A DNA stretch of 40,888 bases from an uncultured Bdellovibrionales bacterium (GTDB lineage Bacteria; Patescibacteriota; Minisyncoccia; Moranbacterales; UBA1568): positions 1-40,888 of the forward strand of contig CAYNMD010000004.1 in NCBI GenBank assembly GCA_964398485.1, written 5' to 3'. A program made the position numbers and the translations under genes. This document shows positions 1-37,734 of the stretch, piece by piece; the stretch's first letter is position 1; the number at the start of each line of letters is the position of its first letter. Under the pieces are notes generated by a model. The model saw nothing but the letters and a program-made list of their open reading frames with translations, had not been told where the DNA came from and did not search any database.

Positions 1-2
1 TT

Positions 3-9511: not shown

Positions 9512-10485
9512 AGTGGGTATGTATGGCCCACACTTTTGATGCCCCAAAAACTGAACTTGAGAGACTGGCCGGAGGGTTTTTGGGTCATCTTGAAATAGAA
9601 ATGGGTCGCTCACCGAGAACAATACGATCGTACACAGAAGTTCTGGGGAGTTTTTTTGTTTGGGGCGGATTGAAACGCGCCAAGGATATCACCGCCGAAA
9701 GAGTGAGGAGCTACCGTGTTTTTCTCAATCGAAAGACAACGGTGCGAGGAGGAACGCTCAAGCCGACAACTCAGGCTTACCATGCTATCGTCATCCGTAC
9801 TTTCCTCAAGTATCTGGCTCGAGAGGATGTAGAAACACTTCCGGCAGAAAAAGTAGAAATTGGCCGAGTACCTGAAAGACAAGTAGATTTTCTCGAGGAG
9901 GATGAACTGGAACGGCTGCTCGCGAGTCCTGAGGGGGATACACTCAAGTCTCGGCGCGATCGAGCGATTCTCGAACTGCTCTTTTCTGCTGGCCTCCGTG
10001 TTTCCGAACTTACTTCTCTTGATCGAGACCAGGTGAATCTTAGAAAAGATGAATTCAGCGTGCGGGGAAAGGGAAATAAACTTCGTATCGTTTTTCTTTC
10101 TGAGAGTGCCAAACGGTCCCTTGAATCCTATCTTGATCAGCGAGGAGATGTTGACCCAGCTTTATTTGTAGCTCATGGCAAGAAGGGGCTCGTCAATAAG
10201 AAATCAGCTTCACGAGAAAGTAGCCGATTGACGCCTCGAAGTGTCGAGAGATTGGTAAAGTACTATGCCAAAAAGGCAGGTATCGTAAAGGATGTACACC
10301 CACACACTCTTCGCCACAGCTTTGCCACCGATCTTCTCCGGAATGGGGCTGATATTCGGGCAGTCCAGACAATGCTCGGTCATGCCTCTATTACCACTAC
10401 TCAGATTTACACCCACGTAACCAACGAGAGACTCAAGGAAATCCATAAGAATTTTCACGGGAAAAGACGAAGGAAGAAATCGTAG
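9505..10485 (+). CDS. Tyrosine site-specific recombinase, XerC/XerD family
   Basis: N-terminal SAM-like core-binding region (RSPRTIRSYTEVLGSFFVW). Catalytic residues: GLRVSELTSL (Arg), HTLRHSFAT (His-x-x-Arg), LGHASITTTQIYTHV (His, Tyr). Alternative start ATG 9523, which avoids the 7-nt overlap with the upstream gene. Confidence 0.9.
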   Translation: MVKWVCMAHTFDAPKTELERLAGGFLGHLEIEMGRSPRTIRSYTEVLGSFFVWGGLKRAKDITAERVRSYRVFLNRKTTVRGGTLKPTTQAYHAIVIRTFLKYLAREDVETLPAEKVEIGRVPERQVDFLEEDELERLLASPEGDTLKSRRDRAILELLFSAGLRVSELTSLDRDQVNLRKDEFSVRGKGNKLRIVFLSESAKRSLESYLDQRGDVDPALFVAHGKKGLVNKKSASRESSRLTPRSVERLVKYYAKKAGIVKDVHPHTLRHSFATDLLRNGADIRAVQTMLGHASITTTQIYTHVTNERLKEIHKNFHGKRRRKKS

Positions 10486-10657: not shown

Positions 10658-11848
10658 ATGGACCGCCTTCGTTTCTGGTTGGATTGGAGAGAGTGGAATA
10701 CCTGGATTCATCATACCCAGACTCGTTTTCTTATTTGGTTTAAGGAACGTTCTGGATATGTACCAGTCCGACTTTTTCGGCAATACTCAGCACTTGGCTT
10801 CGTAGTGCTTTCTTCCCTAACGGTATCTTTGGCCAACGCTACCGAGGAGAGTGGTGGACTCTCTGAAGTAGTTGATGCGCTTGGTTTGATTGATGATGCA
10901 TCAGTTCGGCATGGATCACCCCAGAGTGCTCAAGGAGTGCATACCGATCATCTTGCTCTGGTACCACTGGCTGAAACCTCTAAAGGTGTGGAAGTAGGAA
11001 ATGAATCTCTTCTTACAGTAGCTGATGAGGCGTTCCTTTCTCCAGAGAATCAGATGTTTTTAGCGGCAGCCCTTGGGAGTCGGAGTGCTCGTGAACCAGA
11101 AGAAGATGGGGGCGTGCGGATCTATACGGTTGCGCAAGGAGATACCGTGTCGGGGATTGCAGCTCGTTTTGGCATAACGATCAATACTATTCTCTGGGCC
11201 AATGATCTAGAGAATGTTGATGCTATTCGTCCAGGGGATCAAATCTTTATTTTGCCGGTAGCCGGCTTTTCTTATGTCGTCCAGGCGGGTGACACGATTG
11301 ATTCTATTGCTGCCAAATATAAATCAGCCAAGGAAAAAATTATTGCTTTCAACGAGCTTCCAGCCAATGGTGAGCTAACCGTAGGTGAAAAGATCACTAT
11401 TCCTGACGGACAAAAGGAGATACCTCGCCCAGCTCCAGGTACGAATGCCTTGGAAAGGCGGCAGTATGCTTCGGCAACTGGTGGTAGCGCGACAGACATT
11501 ACCCCTTCATTTGCTCGGCCCAAAGAGGGAAAGCCGGGACAGGGGCATCGTTTTCCTTACGGCTATTGCACTTGGTATGTGGCACAGAAACGCTATGTTC
11601 CTTGGCGTGGTAATGCTGGTGCTTGGCTTTTCAATGCGAGGGCTTTTGGATACAAAACCGGTAAGACACCAACCGTTGGCTCTATTGTGGTAACCACCGA
11701 GGATCGTTACTATGGCCACGTAGCACTGGTGGAAAAAGTAAATAAAGACACGATCACGGTATCTGAGATGAATTATACCGGCTGGGGGAAGAAAAGCGTC
11801 CGGCAGCTCGCCAAAGGGAGCCGGGTGATTAAGGGCTATATCTATTAG
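10658..11848 (+). CDS. Membrane-anchored peptidoglycan hydrolase with two LysM domains and a C-terminal CHAP amidase/peptidase domain
   Basis: TM segment ALGFVVLSSLTVSLANA. LysM 1: YTVAQGDTVSGIAARFGITINTILWANDL. LysM 2: YVVQAGDTIDSIAAKYKSAKEKIIAFNEL. CHAP: GYCTWYVAQKR (catalytic Cys) and YGHVALVEKV (His). Confidence 0.85.
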   Translation: MDRLRFWLDWREWNTWIHHTQTRFLIWFKERSGYVPVRLFRQYSALGFVVLSSLTVSLANATEESGGLSEVVDALGLIDDASVRHGSPQSAQGVHTDHLALVPLAETSKGVEVGNESLLTVADEAFLSPENQMFLAAALGSRSAREPEEDGGVRIYTVAQGDTVSGIAARFGITINTILWANDLENVDAIRPGDQIFILPVAGFSYVVQAGDTIDSIAAKYKSAKEKIIAFNELPANGELTVGEKITIPDGQKEIPRPAPGTNALERRQYASATGGSATDITPSFARPKEGKPGQGHRFPYGYCTWYVAQKRYVPWRGNAGAWLFNARAFGYKTGKTPTVGSIVVTTEDRYYGHVALVEKVNKDTITVSEMNYTGWGKKSVRQLAKGSRVIKGYIY

Positions 11849-11981
11849 GATTTGAGTTCTGAGTCTTTCCCAAGAGAATAATCGGGAATGTTTTGCTTAT
11901 TGATTTCTTGGAAAGGAAATGGAATTTGTACAAAAAAGCAAAGAGGGATAACAAAGGATGTTGTGCGGGCTCCTCATGTGA

Positions 11982-11990
11982 TGGTACAAT
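11982..11990 (+). promoter_or_regulatory. Candidate extended -10 promoter (TGgTACAAT) for the T4SS-like operon
   Basis: TG at 11982-11983 and TACAAT at 11985-11990, with a possible -35 TTGTGC at 11961-11966. It is 33 nt upstream of ATG 12024 and sits in the only sizeable gap (175 nt) before eight tightly packed genes. Confidence 0.35.
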
Positions 11991-12023
11991 AAATACAAAA
12001 TTCTTTGTCTCGAGAGATTTCTT

Positions 12024-14240
12024 ATGCTCGAGTGTACGGTAAAACGAACACACAAATTTTGGCTCGCTTTTTTCTTGGTTGCTTTCGTGGCACAGGGTGT
12101 TTTTTTGACCTCTTCGCTGGCTCATGCAGATAGATGGGGAGGGGCAGATTCAAATGGTACAGTTAATCAGCAAGATTTACCCACACCTACTTCACAAGGG
12201 GCTACGGGTACGAATACATCAAATCAGAGTACTACTCAGTCAGATACTGGTACCTCGAGTTCCTGGGGGAGTTGCATCTTGAATTTCCCTACCTGTATTG
12301 GGGCTGCTGTGTTGAATGCTCTGACTTCTGCTATGGCTTGGCTGGCCAATGGAGCGGCAGGGCTTTTTGTATGGGTAGTGCAGCCAGAAAATATCTCTGG
12401 ACCAACGGGGCTTCTCAACAAGGCTTCGATTTATGAGCTCTGGAAGTTTATCAGGGACTTTTTTAATGTCTTTTTCATTCTCATTCTCTTGCTTTCTGCT
12501 TTTGCCACGGTATTTCAGGTGGAGAACTTCAGTATCCGCAAGATCTTTCTCAATATTCTCTTGGCAGCTTTGGTGATCAACTTCAGCTTCCCTATCACTC
12601 GATTCTTGATTGATATTACTAATGTGCCCATGTACTATTTTCTGAATGCTATTCTTCCCGGGACGGATGGTGGTTTAGGCTTCACAAAGGTATACCTTGG
12701 GAGCACGGGAATGTCAGGAATTATGCTGGCCTCAGCTGTCGGGTTTACCAAAGCGTTTCTCAATGTCGTTTTTATGTTTCTGTTTGCCATCTCGCTTTTG
12801 GTCTTAGCGGTTATGTTTCTTATTCGGCTTATTGCTCTTACTCTACTGCTCGTACTCTCGCCGATTGGTTTTGCTGCAAGTCTTATGCCTGGATTTCAGG
12901 GTGCCGGCAGTAAGTGGTGGGAAGAATTTTGGCGTTATTCGCTCTTTGGCCCATCAGCTGCTCTCATGCTCTTGGTAGCGATGCGTTTCCAGAATGAGCT
13001 TGCTAGTGATGGTACGATTGAAACCTTTAATAGAACACTTACAACGATGAGTTCCGGATCAGCTGCGAGTAGCTCCATGGCTCTTGTTGCTTTCTATACC
13101 ATTCCCTTGGTGCTTATTTGGGCAGCGATCGGTATGGCTAACAAATCGAGTATTGCTGGAGCGGGGCTAGTGGTGGGTCTTGGCTACGGTGCAGCGAAGA
13201 AAGTGGGTGGTTGGGGGAAGAAGATGGTAGTAGGTGGTACCAAAGCGATTTTGCCAACCAATGTAGCCAAGGGAGTGGCTACTGGTGTGAAAGATGGTCT
13301 TAAGGGAGGTAAGCTCTTTGGTCTCAAGGTTATGCCAAAGGGTCTTACACCAAAGGAACTTAAGAAGAAAGGTGAAGAGCGCGAGGCTTACTGGAAGGGT
13401 GTCGGATCAGGTGGCTTTGCTGGTGGAAATAAAGCCAAGGCCGAGCTATTTGATAAGCGGGTTACTGAAAAGGTGAAAGAAAACAAGGAAAATCAAGTGC
13501 CTCGCTCAGCGATGATATTGGGTCTTGATCCTGCCAAGAATGATCTTCTGACCCGAACTGCCAACGCATTGTCACTTGCTCAGGCGGGTGAAATTAAGAG
13601 CGCTGAGGTTCTGCAAAAAGCTATTGAGGCGGTTGGCGATAATGCTGATGCAGTAGACAAAATCCTTGATGGTGCCAAGTCAGATGCTTTTGATGGTATG
13701 GACAAACAGAAATATACCCAGATTCTTTCGAGCTCTGCTTTTGCTCTGAGAAATAATGACGGAGAGCTGATTGATAAGTCAGGCAAGGTCCTGAGTCAGG
13801 GGGCTAAACCGGTAATCGACAAGAATAGTGACATGTACAAGGCTCTTGATAGCAAAATGATAAAGGAGGGTCATTTGGATGTAAAAATTGATTTTGAAGT
13901 TGATCAGCTTACGGAGGAATTGGGCGGTAATAGAGCAGCAGCACGCCAGAAAGTATATGATGATAATCTCAAGCTAAAAGCGAGTGAGCTCGGGGCTCAA
14001 TCGAAGTTGCATCAATCAACTTTGGGAACAACTGAGGATAATATGGCTCTCCGTAATTATTTGGAGCAGATGTTCAAAGACGAGCAGTATAAGATAGAAG
14101 TCTTGAAGGGGATGAATAATAAAGATCGTCAGGTGTGGATTGTGCCAAAGACTAAGCCGGGGAGCGGGGAAACAGTTTCGTCTGGCGGCATAGTAATTCC
14201 TCAGGAGTATAATTCGAAGCGACCGGATAATAGTAGGTAG
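12024..14240 (+). CDS. Polytopic membrane protein, VirB6/TrbL/PrgH-like T4SS channel component, with a Ser/Thr/Gln-rich exposed N-terminal region and a ~330-aa Lys-rich hydrophilic C-terminal extension
   Basis: Signal peptide FLVAFVAQGVFLTSSLAHA|D, then an STQ-rich stretch. At least 6 hydrophobic helices lie between aa ~90 and 400 (e.g. FFNVFFILILLLSAFATVF, VFMFLFAISLLVLAVMFLIRLIALTLLLVLSPIGF). Its position next to PrgI-like and VirB4-like genes supports the call, which rests on topology and context rather than a sequence motif. Confidence 0.55.
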   Translation: MLECTVKRTHKFWLAFFLVAFVAQGVFLTSSLAHADRWGGADSNGTVNQQDLPTPTSQGATGTNTSNQSTTQSDTGTSSSWGSCILNFPTCIGAAVLNALTSAMAWLANGAAGLFVWVVQPENISGPTGLLNKASIYELWKFIRDFFNVFFILILLLSAFATVFQVENFSIRKIFLNILLAALVINFSFPITRFLIDITNVPMYYFLNAILPGTDGGLGFTKVYLGSTGMSGIMLASAVGFTKAFLNVVFMFLFAISLLVLAVMFLIRLIALTLLLVLSPIGFAASLMPGFQGAGSKWWEEFWRYSLFGPSAALMLLVAMRFQNELASDGTIETFNRTLTTMSSGSAASSSMALVAFYTIPLVLIWAAIGMANKSSIAGAGLVVGLGYGAAKKVGGWGKKMVVGGTKAILPTNVAKGVATGVKDGLKGGKLFGLKVMPKGLTPKELKKKGEEREAYWKGVGSGGFAGGNKAKAELFDKRVTEKVKENKENQVPRSAMILGLDPAKNDLLTRTANALSLAQAGEIKSAEVLQKAIEAVGDNADAVDKILDGAKSDAFDGMDKQKYTQILSSSAFALRNNDGELIDKSGKVLSQGAKPVIDKNSDMYKALDSKMIKEGHLDVKIDFEVDQLTEELGGNRAAARQKVYDDNLKLKASELGAQSKLHQSTLGTTEDNMALRNYLEQMFKDEQYKIEVLKGMNNKDRQVWIVPKTKPGSGETVSSGGIVIPQEYNSKRPDNSR

Positions 14241-14244
14241 TGTT

Positions 14245-15402
14245 ATGAGTACGGTTTTCTATCCGATGCTGGCGGAAATGGCGGGGTCCGATGACCTGGT
14301 TTCTGTTTGGTCTAAATTTGATTCTTTACCCAGAAATATTCAAGATGTTCTTACCTCTGATCTGCTTCCAAAAAAACTAGAACAATTATCTAGTCAATTT
14401 TCTTTTGATGAAGAGACAGCATTGTTTGTGAGTATTTTAGTGAGGAGTATTTTCTTTCAAGAAGTTGATTTTCAGAAAGGAACAGACCAGATGAATAGCT
14501 ATTTTCAGAAAAAAGGGAGAAATCCACAGGATGCAAGTCAGGTCATGGAGTTTATCCAGAAGGAGGTAATGACTATTGTTCCTCCAAAACCGGTGATTCA
14601 GCAAACCTCAGTGGGGACGAAAAAAGAACCGGTCCGTGAGTATGTAAAATTACCTCTTCTGAAGGCGTTAGCTGACTATCCACGGCTCAATGAGCAACTT
14701 ATCACAGCAGAGAAGATTCGGATAAAGTCGCAGCCAGAACCAGCTCGCCCAAATTTGGCTAATTGGATTCGCTATTATCGCGACGAGCTCGGTATTGGGT
14801 TTCATGATCAGGTTACGCGAGGGAAATTTCTTTTTCAATCCGAAAACGGGAAGAAACTTTCCGCCGAGGAAAGAGAACGCATTCATTTGGTACTCAAGTC
14901 TTTGGAAGAAGAGTTTCCTTTGGAGATAAATGGGGAACAGGGGACTATTGTTTTTCCAGTAAGAACTCAACCAAGTCCAGTTTCGAGTGCCTTTCCAAAG
15001 CAGTCTGAACTGAACGCTCCTGCTCGATCGGTGAAGCCATTTACACCGAACATCCTCGCTCCAACAATGCCCTCTTCTCCTGTCTCAACTCCTCGAGTAG
15101 CTGAAAAAACAGCTATTCCTACCGGGAAGACTTCCTTTTTTTCTGGAACTTTTGGTGCCGGGAAAAATGTTGCTGATGATACTTTGCATTTTTCGACTGG
15201 TCACGTACTACCGAGCGAAAAACAAACGGATCAACCAACGAACATTCCAAAACAAGGAGTGTCTCCTGCTCCATCTTTTTCTTCAACGTTTGGGATGACT
15301 GGTATTAGTCAAAACCGTGGAGGAGCTCTCCCGCGCAGCCCCTATTCTATCAGGCCCCTTCGTATGCGAGAGGATACCAATCATGAGACTGAAGCGCGGT
15401 AG
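14245..15402 (+). CDS. Hypothetical protein in the T4SS-like operon: helical N-terminal half, Pro/Ser-rich C-terminal half
   Basis: 385-aa ORF starting 4 nt after the preceding stop. No TM segment or signal peptide. I recognise no family. Confidence 0.6.
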   Translation: MSTVFYPMLAEMAGSDDLVSVWSKFDSLPRNIQDVLTSDLLPKKLEQLSSQFSFDEETALFVSILVRSIFFQEVDFQKGTDQMNSYFQKKGRNPQDASQVMEFIQKEVMTIVPPKPVIQQTSVGTKKEPVREYVKLPLLKALADYPRLNEQLITAEKIRIKSQPEPARPNLANWIRYYRDELGIGFHDQVTRGKFLFQSENGKKLSAEERERIHLVLKSLEEEFPLEINGEQGTIVFPVRTQPSPVSSAFPKQSELNAPARSVKPFTPNILAPTMPSSPVSTPRVAEKTAIPTGKTSFFSGTFGAGKNVADDTLHFSTGHVLPSEKQTDQPTNIPKQGVSPAPSFSSTFGMTGISQNRGGALPRSPYSIRPLRMREDTNHETEAR

Positions 15403-15434
15403 TTTTCTTCGAAAATAGATACTCACAGAAATAT

Positions 15435-15833
15435 ATGATGTCCAATGTTCCACAATTTATTGACATTGAAGATAAAGTAGCTGGGCCACTGACTTGGAGA
15501 CAGCTTCTTTGGGTGATTGCTATGGGTATCATCCTCTTGGTGCTCTACAATATGCTTCCCGGGATCGCTTTTGTAGTAGTTGCTATCCCCATCGTGCTTT
15601 TCTTTTCCGCTCTCGCCTTTTATCGACCCCAGGGGCAATCCCTCATTAGTTTTCTTGGTCATGGATTCTTTTTCTTTTTTCGTCCCAAAGTAGCGGTTTG
15701 GGAAAGACCAGTAGTTCGTCCTCGAGCTGTGTCAGCTGCCAAGCCCCAGCGTCAAACGGAACTAGGTCAATCCAAGGGTGTTTCTCGTGAAGAGTTGCGT
15801 AACCTTGCCAAGATGTTGGATACTGTTCAATAG
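15435..15833 (+). CDS. PrgI family protein (VirB3-like small T4SS membrane component)
   Basis: The N-terminus VPQFIDIEDKVAGPLTWRQLLWVIAMGIILLVLY matches the PrgI family signature as I remember it (PF12666). It is followed by a second TM helix, IAFVVVAIPIVLFFSALAF, and lies just upstream of the VirB4-like ATPase. Confidence 0.75.
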   Translation: MMSNVPQFIDIEDKVAGPLTWRQLLWVIAMGIILLVLYNMLPGIAFVVVAIPIVLFFSALAFYRPQGQSLISFLGHGFFFFFRPKVAVWERPVVRPRAVSAAKPQRQTELGQSKGVSREELRNLAKMLDTVQ

Positions 15834-15851
15834 GTAATAATATTTTCTGTC

Positions 15852-16541
15852 ATGGAATTTCTCTCAAAAAACCAAGGAAAACCCAGTGGATCAAGTACTC
15901 AGAAATATGTTGATGTGGATGCTATTCGTAATGGGGTAATTATCTTGAAAAATGGCGGGCTCAGGGCAGTAGTCTTGGTTTCATCAATTAACTTTGATCT
16001 CAAATCAAGCGTCGAACAGGAGGCTATTATTGCTCAGTACCAAAACCTCTTAAATTCACTTGATTTTCCTATTCAGATTGTTATTCAGTCACGCCGATTT
16101 AATATTGATCCCTATATAGAACGTCTCAAACAAGAGGAAAGCCAGCAGCTCAACGATTTACTAAGGTTGCAGATGACAGAGTACCAGGAATTTATTAAAA
16201 ACCTCAATGAAGTCTCGAATATTGTTGCTAAGCAATTCTATATTGTAGTCCCTTTTTCTACAGTAGAAAGTAATGAGGGGGGATTTTTCCAGACTTTATC
16301 TAATATATTCAATCAAAAAAAAGCAGCCACTTTTCAGGGTGAAATGTTTGAGTCGTTTCGTTCTCAACTCTTGCAGCGAGTAGAGCATGTTATGAATGGG
16401 CTTTCCCCGATTGGACTTCGCGGAACAGTCTTGGGTACTGAGGAAATCATTGAACTTCTTTATAATAGCTACAATCCTTCTCTTTTTACGACGAGTATTA
16501 TCAAGAATGTTGATGCGCTTGAACTTAATCCGACCAATTGA
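15852..16541 (+). CDS. Hypothetical cytoplasmic protein in the T4SS-like operon, possibly related to a VirB4 N-terminal domain
   Basis: 229-aa ORF with no TM segment. The segment YVDVDAIRNGVIILKNGGLRAVVLVSSINFDLKSSVEQEAIIAQYQNLLNSLDFPIQIVIQS resembles by eye the N-domain pattern of monoderm VirB4/TrsE-type ATPases. Confidence 0.55.
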   Translation: MEFLSKNQGKPSGSSTQKYVDVDAIRNGVIILKNGGLRAVVLVSSINFDLKSSVEQEAIIAQYQNLLNSLDFPIQIVIQSRRFNIDPYIERLKQEESQQLNDLLRLQMTEYQEFIKNLNEVSNIVAKQFYIVVPFSTVESNEGGFFQTLSNIFNQKKAATFQGEMFESFRSQLLQRVEHVMNGLSPIGLRGTVLGTEEIIELLYNSYNPSLFTTSIIKNVDALELNPTN

Positions 16542-16552
16542 TTTTTCGTATC

Positions 16553-18940
16553 ATGTCACGAGAACTTATCATTTTTGATCGTCCGACTAAAAAGAAATCT
16601 ACAGTATCAGTTACTGATGCTGCCCCTTCAGATAGTGGAGAGGTAGCGAAAAAGACGCGCGTCACTGTGGCCCCAGTGACTCCTCGAGTGGCTCCGGTAA
16701 AAAAAGGAGCGGGGAGTACTAAGGCGGGGACGGCTAAAGCCACTTCATCAGTACCAATGTCAAAACCATCGACGAGAATAGCAAAGAAAAAATCTGAACC
16801 AGAGATAGGGCAAGAGTCCGTGAGACCTGCGCCAAAGATTGCTCCTGTCCCGAGTGTTTTTCAGCGTGAGCTTAGTGGTGAGGATGATGCAAAAGATGAG
16901 GGGATTATTGAGTTACCCCAGCCAATAGCCTCAACTGAAAGAACAGAACAGTCAGTAGCGAGACATAAGGATAGAGTGGCTATTCCTGATCTCTCAAATC
17001 CTTTTCCAGATTTAGATCAAGAAGAGTCCAGAGAGACTCAAGTCATTCAAAACGAGAAACCATCGGCTGGGAAAAAATCCGGATGGCTCCCTTTCCAAAA
17101 ATCAAAATCTGTCGCTCGCCCAGTTTCTTCTAGCCGAATTGAGGAAGATATGGATGTTCAGGCAGGGTCTGTAGATGTCGAGGCACTCTATGCCCGAGGT
17201 CTTGCTACTATCAAAGATCTGATCGCCCCACCAGCTATTAAAGTCACGACCAATGTGATGCAGATCGGAGACGTTATGTCTCGGACGCTATTTGTCATAG
17301 CTTACCCACGTTTTCTTTCGACTAATTGGTTTAGCCCGATCGTCAATATCGATTTTGCCATGGACACGGCCCTGTTCGTCCACCCTATTGATACGGCTGA
17401 TATCCTCAAGACTCTGCGTAAACAAGCGACCCAAGTTCAATCTCAGATGAATATTGAGATGGAGGATGGTAAGATTCGAGACCCAGTTCTTGAGGCGGCT
17501 CTTCAAAACATCGAAGAACTTCGTGATCGATTGCAGCAGGGTACGGAAAAGTTTTTTCGCTTCGGACTCTATATTACTCTTTATGGATCGGACGAAAAGG
17601 ATCTCAACTCCAAAACTCAGTCAATCGAGGCACTTCTCGAGGCGCAGCTCGTCTACACGAAGCCAGCAGTTCTTCGGATGGACAAGGGATTTGCTGCTAC
17701 GAGACCTCTGGGAAACGATGTGCTTGATGTGGCTAATAATCTCAACACCGAGCCGCTTTCCACCACCTTCCCATTTGTTTCTTCGGATCTCTCTTCTAAT
17801 GAAGGGATCTTGTACGGCATTAATAGACACAACAATAGCCTGATTCTCTTCGATCGCTTTAAGATGGAGAATGCCAACATGGTTGTCTTTGCCAAGTCTG
17901 GTGCTGGAAAAAGTTATACGGTAAAACTTGAAGTGCTCAGGTCACTTATGTTTGGCACTGATGTGATCATTATCGACCCAGAAAATGAATACAAGCATCT
18001 GTGTGAAACAGTTGGTGGATCATTTATTCCGATTTCTTTGAGTTCTAGTATTCATCTCAATCCTTTTGATTTACCTAAAACAAGAGAAGGTGAGGATCGA
18101 GAAGGGGTATTTCGGAATGCTATTGCTAACTTGGTAGGACTGCTTCATCTTATGCTAGGCACTCTGACGCCAGAGGAGGATTCTATTCTTGATCAGGCAA
18201 TTCGTGAGGCGTATGCTATTCGTGATATCCACCCAGGTACAGATTTTTCTCAATTAACACCAGCGTCTTATCCCACGATGTCAGATCTCTATGCTGCTCT
18301 ACGAAATATGGAGGGGGCAGAGTCGCTTGCTACTCGGTTGGAACGGTATACGGAAGGTATTTTTTCAGGATTTCTTAATCATCAGACAAATATTGAGACA
18401 GAGAATCAACTGACGGTGTTTAATATCCGTGATTTGGAGGAAGAGCTGCGGCCCATCGCTATGTACATGGTGCTTCAGCACATCTGGAATGAAATTCGAT
18501 CAACTCTGAAGAGACGAATTATTGTGGTCGATGAAGCTTGGCTTATGATGCAAAATGAAGATGCTGCAGCCTTTTTGTTCGGAATTGCGAAACGTTGTCG
18601 TAAATATTTTACTGGTCTCACGACGATTACACAGGATATTAGTGATTTTATGTCATCTCGTTATGGGAAGCCGATTGTTACCAACTCATCAATGCAGCTT
18701 CTCTTGAGACAGTCACCAGCCTCGGTAGACTATGTGGCTGAAACTTTTTATCTCACTGATCATGAGAAGTTTCTCTTGCTTGAATCCAATGTTGGTGAGG
18801 GAATATTCTTTGCTGGAACCAAACATGCTGCTATCAAGGTGATTGCCTCGTATAGCGAGGATCAAATCATTACCTCTGATCCCAGACAATTACTTGAAAT
18901 TGAGGAGGCAAAAAGAGAGTTTGATGCCAATAACCCGTAG
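16553..18940 (+). CDS. VirB4/PrgJ/TrsE-type T4SS ATPase with a ~200-aa Lys/Pro/Ala/Ser-rich N-terminal extension
   Basis: Walker A VVFAKSGAGKSYTVK; Walker B RRIIVVDEAWLMM; downstream TTITQDISDF. N-domain YPRFLSTNWFSPIVNIDFAMDTALFVHPI. ATG 16553 is preferred over the listed TTG 16538. Confidence 0.85.
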   Translation: MSRELIIFDRPTKKKSTVSVTDAAPSDSGEVAKKTRVTVAPVTPRVAPVKKGAGSTKAGTAKATSSVPMSKPSTRIAKKKSEPEIGQESVRPAPKIAPVPSVFQRELSGEDDAKDEGIIELPQPIASTERTEQSVARHKDRVAIPDLSNPFPDLDQEESRETQVIQNEKPSAGKKSGWLPFQKSKSVARPVSSSRIEEDMDVQAGSVDVEALYARGLATIKDLIAPPAIKVTTNVMQIGDVMSRTLFVIAYPRFLSTNWFSPIVNIDFAMDTALFVHPIDTADILKTLRKQATQVQSQMNIEMEDGKIRDPVLEAALQNIEELRDRLQQGTEKFFRFGLYITLYGSDEKDLNSKTQSIEALLEAQLVYTKPAVLRMDKGFAATRPLGNDVLDVANNLNTEPLSTTFPFVSSDLSSNEGILYGINRHNNSLILFDRFKMENANMVVFAKSGAGKSYTVKLEVLRSLMFGTDVIIIDPENEYKHLCETVGGSFIPISLSSSIHLNPFDLPKTREGEDREGVFRNAIANLVGLLHLMLGTLTPEEDSILDQAIREAYAIRDIHPGTDFSQLTPASYPTMSDLYAALRNMEGAESLATRLERYTEGIFSGFLNHQTNIETENQLTVFNIRDLEEELRPIAMYMVLQHIWNEIRSTLKRRIIVVDEAWLMMQNEDAAAFLFGIAKRCRKYFTGLTTITQDISDFMSSRYGKPIVTNSSMQLLLRQSPASVDYVAETFYLTDHEKFLLLESNVGEGIFFAGTKHAAIKVIASYSEDQIITSDPRQLLEIEEAKREFDANNP

Positions 18941-18954
18941 GGACAATTACTAGT

Positions 18955-19431
18955 ATGGCAGGGCCTCATAGCGCGCTTTATAGAGAGAGTCAAGCTGATT
19001 TTTTTCGCATGCGAAACAAAGTTAGTTTCACCGGAGAAAAGCCATCGTGGCTTCTCTATATGATAGTGGGAGTATTTGCGCTCCTTAAGGATATGCTCGA
19101 TATTGTTTTTGGTGTGTTTCCTGGTCTTGGGACGGTTGTTAGCTTAACGTTAGGATTTGGTTTTTCGGTGATTATTTTTCTTCTCCTTTCTATTTTTGAT
19201 CGCTCTGGGGCTGGGTCAGGTAAGAATCGAGCTGTTGCGAAGCAGTTTACTCGTCGTTTTATTACCCTCTTGGGAACGCTATTAGTGGATATACTTCCAA
19301 TTGTAAATTTTCTTCCCGTGGCGACACTTTCTATCATGATTTTGTATTGGCTCGCCAAACGAGATTGGAAGAGGGGGCAGCGGACGCATCAGAAAGAGCT
19401 GCGCCAAATGCAGAGAATGTTGTATGCTTAA
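18955..19431 (+). CDS. Small integral membrane protein (3 predicted TM helices) in the T4SS-like operon
   Basis: Hydrophobic segments WLLYMIVGVFALL, LGTVVSLTLGFGFSVIIFLLLSIF and LPIVNFLPVATLSIMILYWL, with a basic C-terminal tail. No family recognised. Confidence 0.55.
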   Translation: MAGPHSALYRESQADFFRMRNKVSFTGEKPSWLLYMIVGVFALLKDMLDIVFGVFPGLGTVVSLTLGFGFSVIIFLLLSIFDRSGAGSGKNRAVAKQFTRRFITLLGTLLVDILPIVNFLPVATLSIMILYWLAKRDWKRGQRTHQKELRQMQRMLYA

Positions 19432-19443
19432 AGAAAGGCATCT

Positions 19444-20118
19444 ATGCATACACTCATGTTGATACTGGCCAGAAATAAAGAGTTCTTGGTGACTTCCTTG
19501 GTGGTGATGGTCTCTATTCTTTTTCTTGGTTATTTTAAAGAAAGTAGTCAAATCAGCCCAGCTTTACAGGGGCTTATAGTAGCCGTGGCTGTTTTTTTGG
19601 TAATACCTTTGTTTTATTGTAAAATAGTACTGGAGCAGCCACTTTCGAGGCTTGGTTTTCAGAGGGGGAATCCTTGGGCAGGGATTGGCGGGTCAGTGCT
19701 TGCTCTCGGTATTGCTCTCAGTGCCCTTTTTGTTCTTTGGAACTTCACCCCTCTTTTGGAGGGGTACCGCCTCCCAGTGGCTGTTGAAGAGCAATTTCTT
19801 TTCTTCGTTCTCTATGAAGTTTTGCTCAATGGTCTTTTTCTCTTTCTGTTTGAAGTGTTTTTTCGGGGAATGATCCTTCTTCTGTGGTTAAGGGACTTTC
19901 GTATTTGGGGAGTGTTTCTCCAAGCCCTTGTCTTCACCGGTATTCTTTATCTGAGTGGCGATATGAGCAACGGTATCAATCCTCAGACTCTCCCAATGCT
20001 CCTCTTTGCTCCTTTTGCTGGTCTAATTGCGTATCAGTCACGATCAATTTGGTATAGCTTTGGGGCCTCGTGGTTTTTTATTCTTCTCGTAGATGCGCTC
20101 GTGCTTATTTTACGTTAA
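19444..20118 (+). CDS. CPBP (CAAX protease/bacteriocin-processing, Abi) family intramembrane protein, apparently catalytically degenerate
   Basis: Polytopic protein with a motif-1-like FEVFFRGM (canonical EExxxR-G). The conserved FxxxH and HxxxN/D histidines are absent; the only His in the protein is residue 2. Confidence 0.6.
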   Translation: MHTLMLILARNKEFLVTSLVVMVSILFLGYFKESSQISPALQGLIVAVAVFLVIPLFYCKIVLEQPLSRLGFQRGNPWAGIGGSVLALGIALSALFVLWNFTPLLEGYRLPVAVEEQFLFFVLYEVLLNGLFLFLFEVFFRGMILLLWLRDFRIWGVFLQALVFTGILYLSGDMSNGINPQTLPMLLFAPFAGLIAYQSRSIWYSFGASWFFILLVDALVLILR

Positions 20119-20123
20119 TACCT

Positions 20124-23078
20124 ATGTTATTTTCAGTACATCCAAAAAGGACATTTTTGCAAAAGATTTTTAGCCTGTTTGGAATTATCGGTCTTTTACT
20201 CCCTTCGACGACACCTATTTATGCAGGCCTTTTTAGCGCTCCTAAAGTGCCAATGCCAAATGCCAATGAATTTGCTTCTGACATGGAACAGCGCTATCAC
20301 ATTAATACTGAAAATATCCAGGATCAGGGAGAAACACTCAATGTAAGCGAGAACAAAAAAGGAACTCCACAAGTATCTCTTTTCTTTACCCCAAGCGACC
20401 CTCAGGAGGGTCAGAAGGTTACTGCTCGCGCCTTTCCAATCTATTTTTCTAGCGAGTCTAGTGAAATGTACTTTACCTGGTATCTGCAGCGAAAAGAGTG
20501 TGTCAAGAATAACGCACCTTCTGCAGCTGTCCGGACTCGCTGTGACCTCAATAATGATAGTCGAATAAATGTAGAAGATTGGAAGATTGAAGCGGCAAGA
20601 ATTATTGCAACCAATGGTTATGATGCTAACTACACCAATTATTCAGCGGACTCAGACAATGATGGTTACACGGCTCGTTTTGGCGGTGACAGCCGGGTCA
20701 ACGTTCCCAATCACTGTTATTATCATGATAACTCAAAAGGGGAAAATTATGAGTTGGTAGGCGATGCTGGTACGACAACTTTTAATTGCGCCAGTGGATT
20801 ACAGCCCGTCTGCATGGAAGCGAATGTGGCCGTCGACCCCGGGGAATTTAGTGCTGGTGGCACGGGTGGTACAGGTACAGGTGGTTCTGGCTCAGGTGGT
20901 GATGGTGGCGGCTCTGGAACGGGTGGCTCCGGTGGGTCTGCTACTGGCGGTACTGGTACTGGGGGAAATGGATCGGTCATTGGTGACTCGTTTGATGTAA
21001 CTGGTAATGGTGACACGGTGACTGGCTTCCCATACTGTTCTGGTGGTACCGTCGCTTGTATCACTGGTACCCCTTGTTGTGTGAGTAATCCATCCACGGC
21101 TACAAATTGTACCGTAAATATCACGGGGTCATCATGTTCTGCCGAGACAAGCGGTGATAGTGGGCCAGTTTGTAGACATCTCTTTCCTAAACCTTCAGGA
21201 TTTACAAGTGGAGATGGTGATTTTGGTAAAGATGAAGAAAGATTTTGGCGCACCGATCCAAGTGATCCGAATACTTCTGATAATGGCAATAAAGACGAGG
21301 CTAATGTAGTTGGTCTTGGTCAGGAGGGATTTACTTGGAACTATAGTCGAGGAGACAAGGTCGGAGTGGTGGTTGAGGGCGCCTCGATGATTCCTACCAA
21401 GCATGATGATTCGTCAAACATGATCATGTGGGCGTTTTCCAAAAATACTTGTGACTACAGGAAATATGGAGCTGATGTTGGGACCTATCAGAAATCGGTA
21501 CGTGGTTATACTGTGACAATTCCCACAACGGATCTTGATATTAATAATTGCCTTGAAGACAACTTGGTTGACCCTCTGGAGGGTGGGCAAGGAACGGGTC
21601 TCGAAGTAGAACTCAATGCTACCCCAACTGATCCAATAAATGATAGTACTGGTGGTAATACGGGGGATATTATTACAGTTACCACAAGTGTAAATAATTC
21701 TTCGCAAGAGCTTCGTAGTACTTTCTTTGATTGGAAAGTGTACATATCCAAAGATGGGACAGCCAATCCAACGGCTGGCTGGGAGAATATCAATGCTTAT
21801 CTCATGGGTCAAAAGATGTTGACCCAGACCAAAGGAAATGGTCTTGATTCTTTGACGCTTGCTCTCAATGTGCCTGACGCTGATGTGAGGCGTTTTCTTT
21901 CTGGAGGAGTAGGATACCTTAAGTTTCAGGTGGATGTAGCTGAAAACTTTTCAGCCTCTGGAGCGAATCGTCGTGGTAAGTCAGATATTATTGTTAAATT
22001 TATCTCGACTGCTGAGCGTATCGCTGCCTATATCGTGAATGTAAATGGTGATCCTGCCAAACTCTCTCTCAATGAACAAAAAGAAATTTGTAGTGGTACG
22101 GTAAATCCGGCTGATAATGAAGAACGAAAGATTCTTACCAAGCTTGATGCTAAACTCTGTCGAGTGATCAAAAATGAGATTATTGGTCTCAAGGTGATCT
22201 ATCCGACTGATGGGAATGCCTTTACGAATTTCAACTGGACGATCAATGGCTTGCCCCTCGTGTGTAATACACAGGTATCAGCGAGTTGTGCTAATGAGGC
22301 TCAGGGGGGGATAAACTTTTTCCCTATAATTGGAAATATTGGTGATGTCTTTACTATTACTGTTTCTGCGACACGTTCTCAGGATGTGGCTGGGATTTTT
22401 GATACCGATGTCACTCGTCCGACAGTGAGCGAGAAGACTATTACGCTCTCTCGAGCCTTCAAAATAGTAGAGCCAGGAGTCTCAATAGCTTCAGCTGATA
22501 CTGATCAAGCCTGGCCAAAGGTCTTGGGAAAGTATGTTGATGCTAATGGGAAGCAGTATACTGATTACAGCAAGACAACCCTCCAAGCCTTTGCTGGTTC
22601 AACAGTAAGACTCAAAGCAGAGTTTACCCCTGACTTTCTTGGTTCCTATACTCCGCCACAGGTAGAGCGATCCTGGGCAGTGGATGGCGAGTCTGTGGGG
22701 GATGGTACGAGTAACGAAATTAGTTTTTCTACTCTGAAAAAACCTGGAGAGATATATAATGTCACGCTTTCTTCGGCATATCGCCCAAGTGCTCTTGTAA
22801 GAAAGGCTCTGCAGGATATTTGGAAAATCTCTGCCTTGGACTCGACAGAACTCTATTTCAAAACAGAATCGCAATTGGAGCATCCGGAGCAGGTTGATCT
22901 TGGGAAGGCAGGACAAAACAAGTATCTGGCGCTTCTTTCGAGCTATGTGCCAGCGCCACTCTTGTTTGCGGTAAGGATATTTCTTTCTGTGGGACTCATT
23001 ATCTTTGTGACCGGATTTCTCTTTGCTCTTATCCCTAATGCTCCTACAAGACCAGCCGCTTTTATTCGAAGGCGTTAG
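20124..23078 (+). CDS. Large (985 aa) secreted, Cys-rich, C-terminally membrane-anchored protein with Ca-binding-type Asp loops, a Gly-rich linker and repeated Ig-like modules
   Basis: Signal-like IFSLFGIIGLLLPSTTPIYA. Asp loops CDLNNDSRINVEDW and ADSDNDGYTARFGGD (dockerin/thrombospondin-type-3-like). Linker is the 40-aa tract GGTGGTGTGGSGSGGDGGGSGTGGSGGSATGGTGTGGNGS. Cys cluster CSGGTVACITGTPCCVSN..C..C..C. Recurrent FxW..xG strands. C-terminal TM FLSVGLIIFVTGFLFALI followed by RRR. ATG 20124 is chosen over the listed GTG 20070, which would overlap the previous gene. Confidence 0.7.
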   Translation: MLFSVHPKRTFLQKIFSLFGIIGLLLPSTTPIYAGLFSAPKVPMPNANEFASDMEQRYHINTENIQDQGETLNVSENKKGTPQVSLFFTPSDPQEGQKVTARAFPIYFSSESSEMYFTWYLQRKECVKNNAPSAAVRTRCDLNNDSRINVEDWKIEAARIIATNGYDANYTNYSADSDNDGYTARFGGDSRVNVPNHCYYHDNSKGENYELVGDAGTTTFNCASGLQPVCMEANVAVDPGEFSAGGTGGTGTGGSGSGGDGGGSGTGGSGGSATGGTGTGGNGSVIGDSFDVTGNGDTVTGFPYCSGGTVACITGTPCCVSNPSTATNCTVNITGSSCSAETSGDSGPVCRHLFPKPSGFTSGDGDFGKDEERFWRTDPSDPNTSDNGNKDEANVVGLGQEGFTWNYSRGDKVGVVVEGASMIPTKHDDSSNMIMWAFSKNTCDYRKYGADVGTYQKSVRGYTVTIPTTDLDINNCLEDNLVDPLEGGQGTGLEVELNATPTDPINDSTGGNTGDIITVTTSVNNSSQELRSTFFDWKVYISKDGTANPTAGWENINAYLMGQKMLTQTKGNGLDSLTLALNVPDADVRRFLSGGVGYLKFQVDVAENFSASGANRRGKSDIIVKFISTAERIAAYIVNVNGDPAKLSLNEQKEICSGTVNPADNEERKILTKLDAKLCRVIKNEIIGLKVIYPTDGNAFTNFNWTINGLPLVCNTQVSASCANEAQGGINFFPIIGNIGDVFTITVSATRSQDVAGIFDTDVTRPTVSEKTITLSRAFKIVEPGVSIASADTDQAWPKVLGKYVDANGKQYTDYSKTTLQAFAGSTVRLKAEFTPDFLGSYTPPQVERSWAVDGESVGDGTSNEISFSTLKKPGEIYNVTLSSAYRPSALVRKALQDIWKISALDSTELYFKTESQLEHPEQVDLGKAGQNKYLALLSSYVPAPLLFAVRIFLSVGLIIFVTGFLFALIPNAPTRPAAFIRRR
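20850..20975 (+). repeat. GGT/GGC-rich low-complexity coding tract (poly Gly-Thr/Ser linker)
   Basis: About 125 nt of imperfect GGY-NNN-GGY repeats encoding SAGGTGGTGTGGSGSGG...GNGS. The tract creates the Pro-rich shadow ORF on the opposite strand (20747-21289). Confidence 0.8.
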
Positions 23079-23110
23079 TAAGATTTGGTGGGTAGTAGTA
23101 GAAAATAAAA

Positions 23111-23136
23111 GCACCAGAAGTACACTGGTGCTTTTT
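23111..23136. terminator. Bidirectional rho-independent terminator
   Basis: Stem GCACCAG (23111-23117) pairs with CTGGTGC (23125-23131) around the 7-nt loop AAGTACA. It is followed by TTTTT (23132-23136) and preceded by an A-run (AAAATAAAA). It lies between the convergent T4SS-like operon and the minus-strand tRNA-Leu. Confidence 0.8.
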
Positions 23137-23137
23137 G

Positions 23138-23221
23138 TGCCGCGGGAGAGACTCGAACTCTCATGCCTTTGCAGGCGCCAGCTCCTAAGGCTGGTGTGTC
23201 TACCAATTCCACCACCACGGC
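23138..23221 (-). tRNA. tRNA-Leu (anticodon TAG), class II with long variable arm, no encoded CCA
   Basis: Reverse complement reads GCCGTGG TG ... CCAGC CTTAGGA GCTGG ... long variable arm ... GAGAGTTCGAGTCTCTC CCGCGGC A. Acceptor stem has 7 bp (one G-U); T-loop TTCGAGT. The 3' flank is CAA. Confidence 0.9.
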
Positions 23222-23224
23222 TTA

Positions 23225-23536
23225 TTAGGCGAGAAGAGTTAATTCTCCCGCGCTACTGCGTATCCTCTCTATCTCTTCTCGGAGCGCCCCCTCATGATCG
23301 TATTCCCCATGATGACGAGTCTCTTGTCCGTACGTCTCCTTTTTTTGATCTAAATGAATACTGAAAACATATCTACCAGATTCAGTTTTAACATAACAAT
23401 GGAATCGAGGAAAGCCCCCTTGACCAAGAGGGCGGACGAAGCTCATCTCATTTTCCTTTTGATACTGAAAAATATAGCCAAGCCTACGCATAATAGTAAC
23501 GGCATTATCAGTAGTATGATCAAGAGTGAAACGCAT
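23225..23536 (-). CDS. Hypothetical 103-aa protein located exactly between tRNA-Pro and tRNA-Leu
   Basis: ATG 23536 (MRFTLDHTTDNAVTIMRRLGY...FPRFHCYVKTESGRYVFSIHLDQKK...HHGEYDHEGALREEIERI). The longer listed ORF start (23611) would run through tRNA-Pro. Tandem stops TAA-TAA (23227-23222) abut tRNA-Leu position 1 (23221). Purine-rich AAGAAGAAAGAAGAG lies upstream of the ATG. Confidence 0.5.
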   Translation of the reverse strand: MRFTLDHTTDNAVTIMRRLGYIFQYQKENEMSFVRPLGQGGFPRFHCYVKTESGRYVFSIHLDQKKETYGQETRHHGEYDHEGALREEIERIRSSAGELTLLA

Positions 23537-23563
23537 ATTCTCTTCTTTCTTCTTTGAATTATG

Positions 23564-23637
23564 TGGTCGGGGTGCCGGGAATTGAACCCGGATTACATGC
23601 ACCCGAAGCATGCGTAATGCCGTTATACCACACCCCG
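23564..23637 (-). tRNA. tRNA-Pro (anticodon CGG), CCA encoded
   Basis: Reverse complement reads CGGGGTG TG GTAT AACGGCA TTAC G CATGC TTCGGGT GCATG TAAT CCGGG TTCAATT CCCGG CACCCCG A CCA. It folds as a full cloverleaf with G37 3' of the anticodon. Confidence 0.9.
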
Positions 23638-30451: not shown

Positions 30452-30461
30452 AGGGTAAAGT

Positions 30462-34529: not shown

Positions 34530-34862
34530 ATGCCAGAAGAAACTCGTGCTCGTCGAAAAAATACAGAAACAAGCTGGTCGTTTGTCCCAGATTTTCTTGA
34601 TCGCATGTTTGATACGGTGGAGGTTTTCACTGAGAGATTGATACATCTTCTTTCAGATACAGCTGAAACACTGGTCACGCGAGCAGTGCAGAGACTGTTT
34701 GGCCTTCTTCTTCTCGGGGTGGGTATCGTTTTTGTTCTGGTTGGTGGAGCGGAGATTCTCAATCAGATATTTCGCTTTCCCGGAGTAGGGGAGCTTATTG
34801 TAGGAGCCTTCATTCTGTTTGTTACGTCGATTGTGCTTTTGGCAACCAGAAGAAGGTCTTAA
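34530..34862 (+). CDS. Small two-TM membrane protein, YqjE/holin-X (DUF1469)-like
   Basis: Amphipathic N-terminal region, then LFGLLLLGVGIVFVLVGGAEIL and LIVGAFILFVTSIVLLA with a basic tail. It sits next to a YqjD-like gene. The call rests on topology and context only. Confidence 0.35.
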   Translation: MPEETRARRKNTETSWSFVPDFLDRMFDTVEVFTERLIHLLSDTAETLVTRAVQRLFGLLLLGVGIVFVLVGGAEILNQIFRFPGVGELIVGAFILFVTSIVLLATRRRS

Positions 34863-34889
34863 GTATTAATTGGTGAGATAATAATTTGT

Positions 34890-35135
34890 ATGGAAAAGAT
34901 GACTCCAGAGGTGCTGCAGGCCAAGGTGACTAAAGAGCTCGAGAAGAGTCGTAAGATGGCTGAGCGGGAACTAGCCAAGATCAAGACAACAGTAACGGGC
35001 AAGATGAAAGAGGTAGAGAAGTTTGTAGAGAAAAATCCCGAGAAGGCAGCCCTTATCAGTGCAGGTATTGGTGCTGCCCTTGGTGCTGCTATGGCTCTCT
35101 TCATGAATAAGGGTGCTAAGAAGAAAAAGCGTTAG
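34890..35135 (+). CDS. DUF883/YqjD(ElaB)-like tail-anchored membrane protein
   Basis: Helical N-terminal part followed by KFVEKNPEKAALISAGIGAALGAAMALFM. This aligns by eye with E. coli YqjD EYVRENPWTGVGIGAAIGVVLGVLL. Lys-rich C-terminus. Confidence 0.55.
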   Translation: MEKMTPEVLQAKVTKELEKSRKMAERELAKIKTTVTGKMKEVEKFVEKNPEKAALISAGIGAALGAAMALFMNKGAKKKKR

Positions 35136-37463: not shown

Positions 37464-37734
37464 GACAAGTACCTTCGAGAGAAAGTTTTCGATTTCACGA
37501 TCGAGGTCCGTCGAAATACTGTTTTCAGTAAGGTGGTAAATCGTGGGGAGTTTTTCAAAATTGTGAATGGGTATTTTGAAAAATTTCTCGAAAGTCGTTT
37601 TTCGACTGACTCAAAAGCTTAAAGTACGGGTGATGTATCGAGGGCTTTTCGGGACACAACTAATTCACTAGCTTTCCTACTGGACTGACTTTCTTGTATC
37701 GCCAAAGAAAGTCACGGCCGTGGGCGTTTTTTCT

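Follow-up and report, generated by a model that had tools for sequence, protein, structure and literature searches.

A Moranbacteria chromosomal gene cluster that probably encodes a non-conjugative type IV secretion system derived from monoderm conjugation machinery

The contig CAYNMD010000004.1 (GenBank assembly GCA_964398485.1), whose 40,888 nucleotides (40.9 kb) make up the whole stretch of DNA analysed here and are referred to as the window, carries a cluster of genes related to type IV secretion systems (T4SSs). Eight co-directional genes lie on the + strand between positions 12024 and 23078, with intergenic gaps of 4, 32, 18, 11, 14, 12 and 5 nt according to the table of open reading frames (ORFs) and their translations, which reproduces the layout described in the original prediction, an earlier note on the same DNA. 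A ninth + strand gene, coding for a LysM-LysM-CHAP hydrolase (10658–11848), is located 175 nt upstream of the eight-gene run. The locus is the Moranbacteria version of a kind of system that has already been published, and it probably encodes a chromosomal, non-conjugative T4SS of Patescibacteria that descends from the conjugation machinery of monoderm bacteria of mating-pair formation class FATA (MPF-FATA). The features of the locus are the following:

10658–11848, + strand: LysM-LysM-CHAP hydrolase, identified by Pfam
11982–11990, + strand: candidate extended -10 element TGGTACAAT in the 175-nt spacer
12024–14240, + strand: VirB6-like polytopic protein, by predicted fold and weak profile matches
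14245–15402, + strand: orf385, predicted cytoplasmic protein of a conserved lineage-specific family
15435–15833, + strand: PrgI/VirB3-like protein, identified by Pfam PF12666
15852–16541, + strand: TrsD-like detached N-terminal piece of VirB4, by NCBIfam models
16553–18940, + strand: VirB4-type ATPase, by NF045971 and Walker motifs
18955–19431, + strand: orf158, small predicted membrane protein, by its position after virB4 and by alignment
19444–20118, + strand: degenerate CPBP/Rce1-like protein, just under the Pfam cut-off
20124–23078, + strand: orf985, Cys-rich predicted surface protein, by signal peptide, C-terminal helix and model
23107–23135, both strands: predicted bidirectional intrinsic-terminator hairpin, by scan and fold
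23137–23221, - strand: tRNA-Leu(TAG), by tRNA call

The product of the upstream gene contains two LysM domains (81.7 bits) and a CHAP domain (67.7 bits), both above the Pfam cut-offs, with the Cys motif of CHAP at 11561–11581 and the His motif at 11711–11731, and no lytic-transglycosylase domain was found in it. The gene adjoins the VirB6-like gene in both arrangements in which the locus occurs among related genomes, and the domain content predicts a membrane-anchored, VirB1-type wall-opening hydrolase of the kind required in the MPF-FATA class. The protein encoded at 15435–15833 matches PrgI (PF12666) with 42.3 bits against a cut-off of 27 and TcpE more weakly, and two hydrophobic helices are predicted in it. 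Of 80 related genome loci, 76 contain its gene, which here is located two positions upstream of virB4, placing a VirB3-like gene by virB4 as in MPF-FATA systems. The ATPase encoded at 16553–18940 scores 362.8 bits against a cut-off of 325 with NF045971, the CD1110-family VirB4 model from Firmicutes, and its Pfam matches include P-loop_TraG, AAA_10 and DUF87. Its best match in the PDB is the C-terminal domain of Thermoanaerobacter VirB4 (4AG5, 4.4e-49), followed by TrwK (2.4e-7). As in T4SS ATPases, Walker A (17888–17920) and Walker B (18518–18541) are both present. The hydrolase, PrgI/VirB3 and VirB4 calls of the original prediction have thus held at family thresholds.

The ORF at 15852–16541 was one of four that the original prediction could not assign to any family. 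It matches the N-terminal parts of three full-length VirB4 models (NF045975, positions 100–238; NF045971, 3–123; TIGR00929, 18–171) as well as the TrsD model NF041427 (2.1e-5). None of these matches reaches the whole-protein cut-offs, yet they agree with one another and complement the VirB4 ORF, which covers the rest of the same three VirB4 models without overlap. Because the two ORFs split the same models, VirB4 is encoded here as two separate proteins, an arrangement that the pGO1/pSK41 class also has. Judged from these profile matches, 15852–16541 encodes a TrsD-like, detached N-terminal piece of VirB4, such as defines the pGO1 subclass, and the gene is found in 79 of the 80 related loci. 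The ATPase itself begins with a disordered, low-complexity extension of about 200 residues rich in Lys, Pro, Ser and Ala (16553–17150), which is absent or very different in length among orthologues (600–880 residues in total), and its gene has an alternative TTG start at 16538 that overlaps the stop codon of the preceding ORF. The other three ORFs left unassigned (starting at 14245, 18955 and 20124) are still without a known family.

The protein encoded at 12024–14240 consists of a signal/anchor helix, a low-complexity ectodomain, a helical transmembrane (TM) core at residues ~90–375 and a C-terminal helical domain at residues ~445–710. It had been called VirB6/TrbL-like, and that call survives in its fold but not in Pfam, where neither this protein nor its 21 orthologues match PF04610 or any other family; a sequence-profile search of the PDB with the VirB6-like family also returned nothing relevant. 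In NCBIfam, sub-threshold matches to TraJ and CD3337/EF1877 were obtained for the protein, and among the 22 family members CD3337/EF1877 was matched by five (best 1.3e-8) and pLS20_p028 by two, the matched families being membrane proteins of Gram-positive conjugative elements. A 33-sequence profile aligned by hhalign with pSK41 TrsL, a member of the TrbL family, over 126 columns of the TM core (E 6.5e-4, probability 27%), and with R388 TrwI (comparison sequence NC_028464) over a WW-containing segment of the same core (E 0.013). When the AlphaFold2 (AF2) model, with a predicted local distance difference test score (pLDDT) of 73.5, was searched by Foldseek against 350,542 PDB chains, four of the five best matches were R388 TrwI/VirB6 chains (probability 0.97–1.0, TM-score by target 0.45–0.53, E 0.17–0.4), the identity of which was checked. 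Since the PF04610 test fails, the call rests on fold and profile–profile evidence, and the protein is likely to be an extended VirB6-like protein by its modelled fold, not a threshold-passing member of the family.

The remaining four genes of the cluster define four conserved, lineage-specific families that are new in this analysis: orf385, orf158, the CPBP-like protein and orf985. The orf385 gene always follows directly after the VirB6-like gene, and a library of 1.84 billion proteins contains 771 representative clusters of its family at E ≤ 1e-3. The N-terminal region of this 385-residue protein is helical; the protein also has a strongly conserved core (residues ~130–250), a Pro-rich disordered linker and, towards the C-terminus, the short conserved motifs FS[ST]xH..P.E and the C-terminal NPFxIRP. 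No TM segment is predicted in it, and no Pfam or PDB sequence match was obtained, even with a diverse 36-sequence profile. The smaller orf158 (158 residues) is composed of about four helices, with Lys-45, Asp-46 and Asp-49 invariant in the first of them. A profile search placed it directly after virB4 in 75 of the 80 genome loci, in both arrangements, and orf158 is a core, constant downstream partner of VirB4. Searches against Pfam, the PDB, pSK41 TrsF and the CagC/VirB2-like TrsB revealed no similarity, and a word-indexed homologue search produced 11 close relatives, none of them annotated. Assignments to DUF4133 and DUF3262 were considered and discarded as single-member matches at chance level (E ~0.09).

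The protein encoded at 19444–20118 scores 21.9 bits with the Rce1-like/CPBP family, just below the Pfam cut-off of 22.4, and weakly matches the CPBP archaeomyxosortase MrtA in NCBIfam. The xEVFFRG motif is kept in an alignment of 22 orthologues, in none of which the first catalytic Glu or either catalytic His is present, and the set of CPBP motifs (EExxxR, FxxxH and HxxxN/D) is incomplete in the protein itself. Its fold is probably related to CPBP/Rce1, as judged from these sequence features, and a canonical protease mechanism is unlikely; its earlier description as a histidine-less CPBP protein agrees with the lack of any conserved His among the orthologues. The gene is always paired with that of orf985.

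The 985-residue product of the last gene carries a signal peptide, a C-terminal TM helix (22959–23036) preceded by a conserved segment and followed by a basic tail, a Gly-rich linker (20856–20972) and 18 Cys residues, 14 of which are invariant across orthologues, in agreement with its earlier description as a Cys-rich anchored exoprotein. For both orf985 and orf158, Pfam and PDB sequence searches gave no credible match. The AF2 model of orf985 (pLDDT 73) is a chain of β-sandwich domains, for which Foldseek found immunoglobulin (Ig)-, fibronectin type III (FN3)- and macroglobulin (MG)-like adhesion proteins with E values of 1e-7 to 1e-5 and low TM-scores. The likeness is generic, extending to complement MG domains, cadherins, CD22, phage Hoc and intimin, and no T4SS-specific match was among the Foldseek results. 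A Laminin_G_3 lectin domain is inserted in some orthologues. The modelled architecture predicts a surface adhesin or stalk. A PF19590 tag carried by about 15 homologues was not reproducible at E ≤ 0.01 and was not used.

As to transcription, the original prediction had provided the eight genes with one promoter and one strong terminator. The letters of the proposed promoter, TGGTACAAT, are found at 11982–11990, but a scan with the sigma-70 consensus did not call the site, and promoter-like sites occur at chance level (24 observed against 21.2 expected from shuffled sequence). A TGnTAnAAT-like extended -10 element is present in 10 of 27 orthologous spacers; TGGTACAAT is a candidate promoter and nothing more. 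The hairpin at 23107–23135 is real, with 11 pairs, a folding energy of -15.8 kcal/mol (z = -3.05) and runs of U and A on either side. It is bidirectional, lies directly against the 3' end of the minus-strand tRNA-Leu (23137–23221) and probably terminates transcription from both sides. An Rfam scan found nothing beyond three tRNAs. Shine-Dalgarno-like sequences are weak or absent in the 25 nt before most of the nine start codons of the cluster.

No domain of a type IV coupling protein (T4CP), relaxase or VirB11 was found in any sizeable ORF of the window, and replication and partition genes were not found there either. A conjugative element would bring a VirD4/TcpA coupling protein and a MOB relaxase with an origin of transfer (oriT), and none of these was found in the sizeable ORFs of the 40.9-kb contig; the earlier statement that the apparatus lacks these components thus stands for the ORFs of the window, its wording "without coupling protein" being valid for the contig alone. 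Searches for a VirB2-like T4SS pilin (PF18895) found no match anywhere in the window, and the absence of an obvious VirB8-like or pilin gene, also stated earlier, was borne out by Pfam, NCBIfam, PDB and pilin searches of the same stretch.

The neighbourhood of the cluster was compared among relatives of its VirB4, for which one genome per species was scanned, yielding 237 relatives, of which 80 were kept. Nearly all of the 80 belong to Moranbacteria/Moraniibacteriota or to other metagenome-assembled genomes (MAGs) of Patescibacteria. Many MAGs labelled "uncultured Bdellovibrionales bacterium" carry the Moranbacteria-type locus with its flanks, and these labels are almost certainly wrong. The order PcrA–Xer–LysM/CHAP–VirB6-like–orf385–PrgI–TrsD–VirB4–orf158–CPBP–orf985, followed on the opposite strand by the CCA enzyme, initiation factor IF-2 and DUF4446, is kept down to about 65% VirB4 identity in dozens of genomes according to tblastn and profile searches, and the same order also occurs in metagenome contigs. 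The synteny check proposed with the original prediction thus returned the same eight-gene order with the same flanks in dozens of Moranbacteria genomes. Of the 161 sequences examined, 91 have the contiguous arrangement, and whichever arrangement is present, the recombinase stays with PcrA. G+C content is uniform along the locus and shows no compositional break; no repeat of at least 12 nt of the tRNA-Leu/terminator region was found elsewhere in the window, and no plausible pair of attachment (att) sites was found either. Because dozens of genomes share the gene order of the cluster and of its housekeeping flanks, and att-like repeats are missing, the locus is a vertically inherited chromosomal system and not an integrative and conjugative element (ICE): the att repeats, edge integrase and patchy presence that bound a mobile element are not seen. 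The earlier judgement that this is not a standard conjugation module agrees with the housekeeping flanks, the synteny, the lack of att-like repeats and the absence of T4CP and relaxase from the contig.

A second arrangement occurs in 38 of the 161 sequences (L050–L078, for example L056:7013-8617, and L100, L110, L116, L122, L125–L127, L132, L136, L146, L151, L154 and L156 in our numbering). In these split clusters, two PF18895 pilin genes precede PrgI–TrsD–VirB4–orf158, and several kb downstream PcrA–Xer–LysM/CHAP–VirB6-like–orf385 precedes an array of as many as four pilin genes, the pilins scoring above the PF18895 cut-off. The CPBP-like gene and orf985 are absent from all 38 pilin-array loci within the sequence in view, whereas in the contiguous loci the CPBP-like gene is present in 77 and orf985 in 76 of 91; one or two pilin genes, directly after orf985, are found in seven of these 91. 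The anti-correlation between pilins and CPBP/orf985 is suggestive but not proven, because the locus counts are not de-duplicated and cover about 10 kb on each side of each locus. We tentatively propose, as an idea that is rather doubtful at present, that one large sub-lineage of Moranbacteria uses the CPBP-like protein together with orf985 as a pilus-free host-contact module that replaces the VirB2-like pilin arrays of sister lineages and Saccharibacteria, with the pseudo-protease as the membrane receptor or chaperone for the C-terminal anchor of orf985.

The Xer-like recombinase, in the 8210–10485 region, lies on the + strand both in this genome and in its two closest relatives, but on the opposite strand in most other Moranbacteria loci, and a beta-helix/NosD-like gene (8210–9511) stands between PcrA and Xer in three close relatives only; the region 8210–10485 looks like a small local inversion or insertion. 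At the 5' end of the window (1–4880, + strand), an ORF entering from outside encodes a surface protein of more than 1,600 residues that includes a Laminin_G_3 (ConA-like lectin) domain, the type inserted in some orf985 orthologues; related loci do not conserve this gene. On the other side of the cluster (23137–23637, - strand), tRNA-Leu(TAG) and tRNA-Pro(CGG) flank a small conserved ORF (23225–23611), whose listed start overlaps tRNA-Pro and whose real start is probably an internal ATG near 23536. At 28529–32342 (- strand) stand two GH130 (mannoside phosphorylase-like) genes in tandem, whose N-terminal extensions are large and whose ORF calls share about 160 nt; none of the related loci has them. 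An rpoB-like ORF (37672–40888, + strand) runs off the 3' end of the contig, which explains the apparent gap in the list of ORFs there, and upstream of it lie an Amidase_2 gene (35237–36010) and two small membrane ORFs (34530–35135).

These components can be assembled into a plausible machine, in which the membrane-anchored LysM-CHAP enzyme would open the cell wall locally and the extended VirB6-like protein, PrgI/VirB3 and orf158 would form a channel in the cytoplasmic membrane. The two-piece VirB4, consisting of the TrsD-like protein and the ATPase, may dock on PrgI to power assembly and transport, and orf385 may be an accessory protein in the cytoplasm whose short conserved motifs mediate binding. 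The histidine-less CPBP-like protein could hold or position the C-terminal anchor of orf985, the disulfide-rich β-sandwich chain of which would be the exposed, host-contacting part. The machine would then move macromolecules (proteins, and possibly nucleic acids) across the host contact and support host-dependent growth. Transfer of macromolecules across a host contact is the most likely function by analogy with the essential T4SS of Southlakia epibionticum, and a contact-dependent translocon is the mechanism that homology and analogy favour. We infer the substrate, the direction of transport and the roles of the four orphan proteins.

We give a probability of roughly 0.72 to the reading that the cluster is a Patescibacteria chromosomal, non-conjugative T4SS which descends from monoderm MPF-FATA machinery and is no longer a conjugation module. 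It draws on the identities of the LysM-CHAP, PrgI, TrsD-like and VirB4 proteins, the VirB6-like fold, the synteny and the lack of mobile-element hallmarks on the contig, and the locus has the features of the Patescibacteria clade, with TrsD, PrgI and a likely VirB6-like protein near virB4, a chromosomal position and no relaxase. The homology of the core proteins to Gram-positive conjugative elements would also suit an ordinary ICE or its decaying remnant, for which the tyrosine recombinase encoded at 9505–10485 would be the integrase and tRNA-Leu the integration site, with T4CP and relaxase lost or located elsewhere. The position of this Phage_integrase-family gene upstream and the tRNA 3' end that abuts the downstream end of the operon do recall the classic geometry of a genomic island. 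However, the recombinase stands beside PcrA, and the whole block has the same housekeeping neighbours in dozens of species-level genomes; an empty site is found at no locus, and the missing att pair, the even composition and the lack of relaxase, T4CP and replication or partition genes in the window all make an ICE extremely improbable.

Another possibility is that the cluster still conjugates or exports DNA with the help of a coupling protein and a relaxase from another part of the chromosome. In favour of this reading, the contig spans only 40.9 kb, and a survey detected T4CP homologues in 2,918 genomes of Patescibacteria, for the most part at a distance from virB4; T4CP genes often lie beside a relaxase instead (PMC12102498). 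The same survey counted 109 homologues of relaxases, spread over 103 genomes of Patescibacteria, only 15 of them near virB4, and the distant T4CP homologue of Southlakia is non-essential whereas its T4SS genes are essential (PMC12102498); moreover, the locus is chromosomal, single-copy, strictly vertical in its inheritance and conserved throughout an order, unlike a self-transmissible element, and export of this kind is improbable. The cluster might instead be a dedicated importer of host or environmental DNA or nucleotides, like ComB or Ced, feeding an organism unable to make nucleotides. Like ComB, it lacks T4CP and relaxase; import, be it of DNA or of other macromolecules, is what the 2025 survey's authors prefer (PMC12102498), and ComEC-based competence is dispensable for growth of Southlakia (PMC12857230). 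The weak NCBIfam matches of VirB4 to the Ced import ATPases CedB and CedD point the same way, but their scores fall far short of the cut-offs and stem from the ATPase fold that these proteins share. The operon contains no recognisable protein for binding or processing DNA, DNA passage in this or any other Patescibacteria system is a proposal only, and a surface protein as large and adhesin-like as this one suits contact-dependent exchange better than it suits the uptake of free DNA, so that we consider a dedicated importer unlikely.

Several points weigh against the preferred reading of a non-conjugative, host-contact T4SS. By sequence, the VirB6 call is below significance, with no Pfam match, Foldseek E values of 0.17–0.4 and an hhalign probability of 27%, and no ORF of the window has a match to VirB8-like bitopic proteins of NTF2 fold (PrgL, TraM or TcpC) in Pfam, NCBIfam or PDB sequences, although this negative leaves room for a divergent analogue in orf385 or orf158, the folds of which were not predicted. 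The absence of T4CP and relaxase holds for the 40.9-kb contig, which is the whole window, and not for the genome. The eight genes as a single transcription unit are a prediction from their layout, and for four of the nine proteins (orf385, orf158, the CPBP-like protein and orf985) the proposed roles are guesses. The proposed function is carried over from another class, Saccharimonadia, whose cluster has essential VirB2-like pilins that are absent from the contig.

To our knowledge, the Patescibacteria T4SS is the only T4SS that is essential to its bearer. The present locus is a compact, widely conserved Moranbacteria version of it, with four partner families that standard annotation leaves blank. 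What is added here is the TrsD-like assignment, the fold support for VirB6, the vertical inheritance, the four orphan families and the contrast between pilins and CPBP/orf985; this contrast, of pilin arrays on one side and a giant surface protein with a pseudo-CPBP on the other, could guide work on how ultra-small bacteria connect to their hosts.

Among the known systems, the MPF-FATA plasmids of the pGO1/pSK41/pIP501 type share with the locus the CHAP hydrolase and, given the likely VirB6-like fold of the 12024–14240 protein, a TrbL/VirB6-type protein, and in passing the CD1110-family cut-off the VirB4 resembles those of Firmicutes MPF-FATA systems. The order trsC (VirB3-like)–trsD–trsE (VirB4)–membrane protein of pSK41 parallels PrgI–TrsD–VirB4–orf158, although orf158 is unlike TrsF or TrsB, and the hydrolase and VirB6-like genes are upstream of VirB4 here and downstream there. 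pSK41 also has a VirD4-like T4CP, a relaxase, topoisomerase III, a single-stranded DNA-binding protein (SSB) and a CagC/VirB2-like gene, all of which the window lacks, and the locus differs from the pSK41 class in being chromosomal and vertically inherited. In the structurally solved MPF-T system Trw of R388, TrwI/VirB6 is the nearest PDB relative of the predicted TM core of 12024–14240, and TrwK is homologous to the VirB4; however, the VirB6-like protein is twice as long as TrwI, with an extra C-terminal helical domain, and homologues of VirB2, B5, B7, B8, B9, B10 and B11 are missing from the locus, consistent with a monoderm envelope. ComB of Helicobacter pylori, a diderm VirB2–B10 set, and Ced of Sulfolobales are T4SS-derived DNA importers without T4CP. 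Like them, the locus is centred on VirB4, lacks coupling protein and relaxase and has a proposed non-conjugative role, the specific likeness being limited to the ATPase fold.

The closest comparison is with the T4SSs of Patescibacteria themselves. The T4SS genes of the cultured Saccharibacterium Southlakia epibionticum (SEML1_0006-0019) are essential, are closest to Gram-positive conjugative systems and include pilin genes (Wang et al. 2023, PMC10633639), the array of VirB2-like pilins being itself essential (PMC10633639), and a recognisable coupling protein or relaxase is missing there too (PMC10633639; PMC12857230). A phylum survey that included Moranbacteria described the VirB4 proteins of Patescibacteria as a monophyletic clade with MPF-FATA origins (Quinonero-Coronel et al. 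2025, PMC12102498), in which TrsD is the most frequent partner near virB4, followed by PrgI/VirB3, VirB6, hydrolases and VirB2-like pilins, very few VirB8 homologues occur, and VirB2-like pilin genes (PF18895 and relatives) near virB4 are frequent but not universal (PMC12102498). The original prediction held that the composition of such a stripped-down apparatus was not established, which no longer stands, since relaxase-less, MPF-FATA-derived T4SSs of Patescibacteria have been published (PMC10633639, PMC12102498); a 2025 review restates these findings and stresses that their substrate and architecture are unknown (PMC12857230), and a literature search returned no later functional or structural work on them. 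The locus differs from the Southlakia system in having no VirB2-like pilin on the contig, and from loci of the Patescibacteria clade in not standing beside dnaA/dnaN within the window, and orf385, orf158, the degenerate CPBP-like protein and orf985 were not found described in the text of the survey. It has in common with both the Southlakia T4SS and the Patescibacteria clade its chromosomal position, the lack of a relaxase and of a T4CP by virB4, the peptidoglycan hydrolases, and TrsD, PrgI/VirB3 and a likely VirB6-like protein grouped by an MPF-FATA-derived VirB4.

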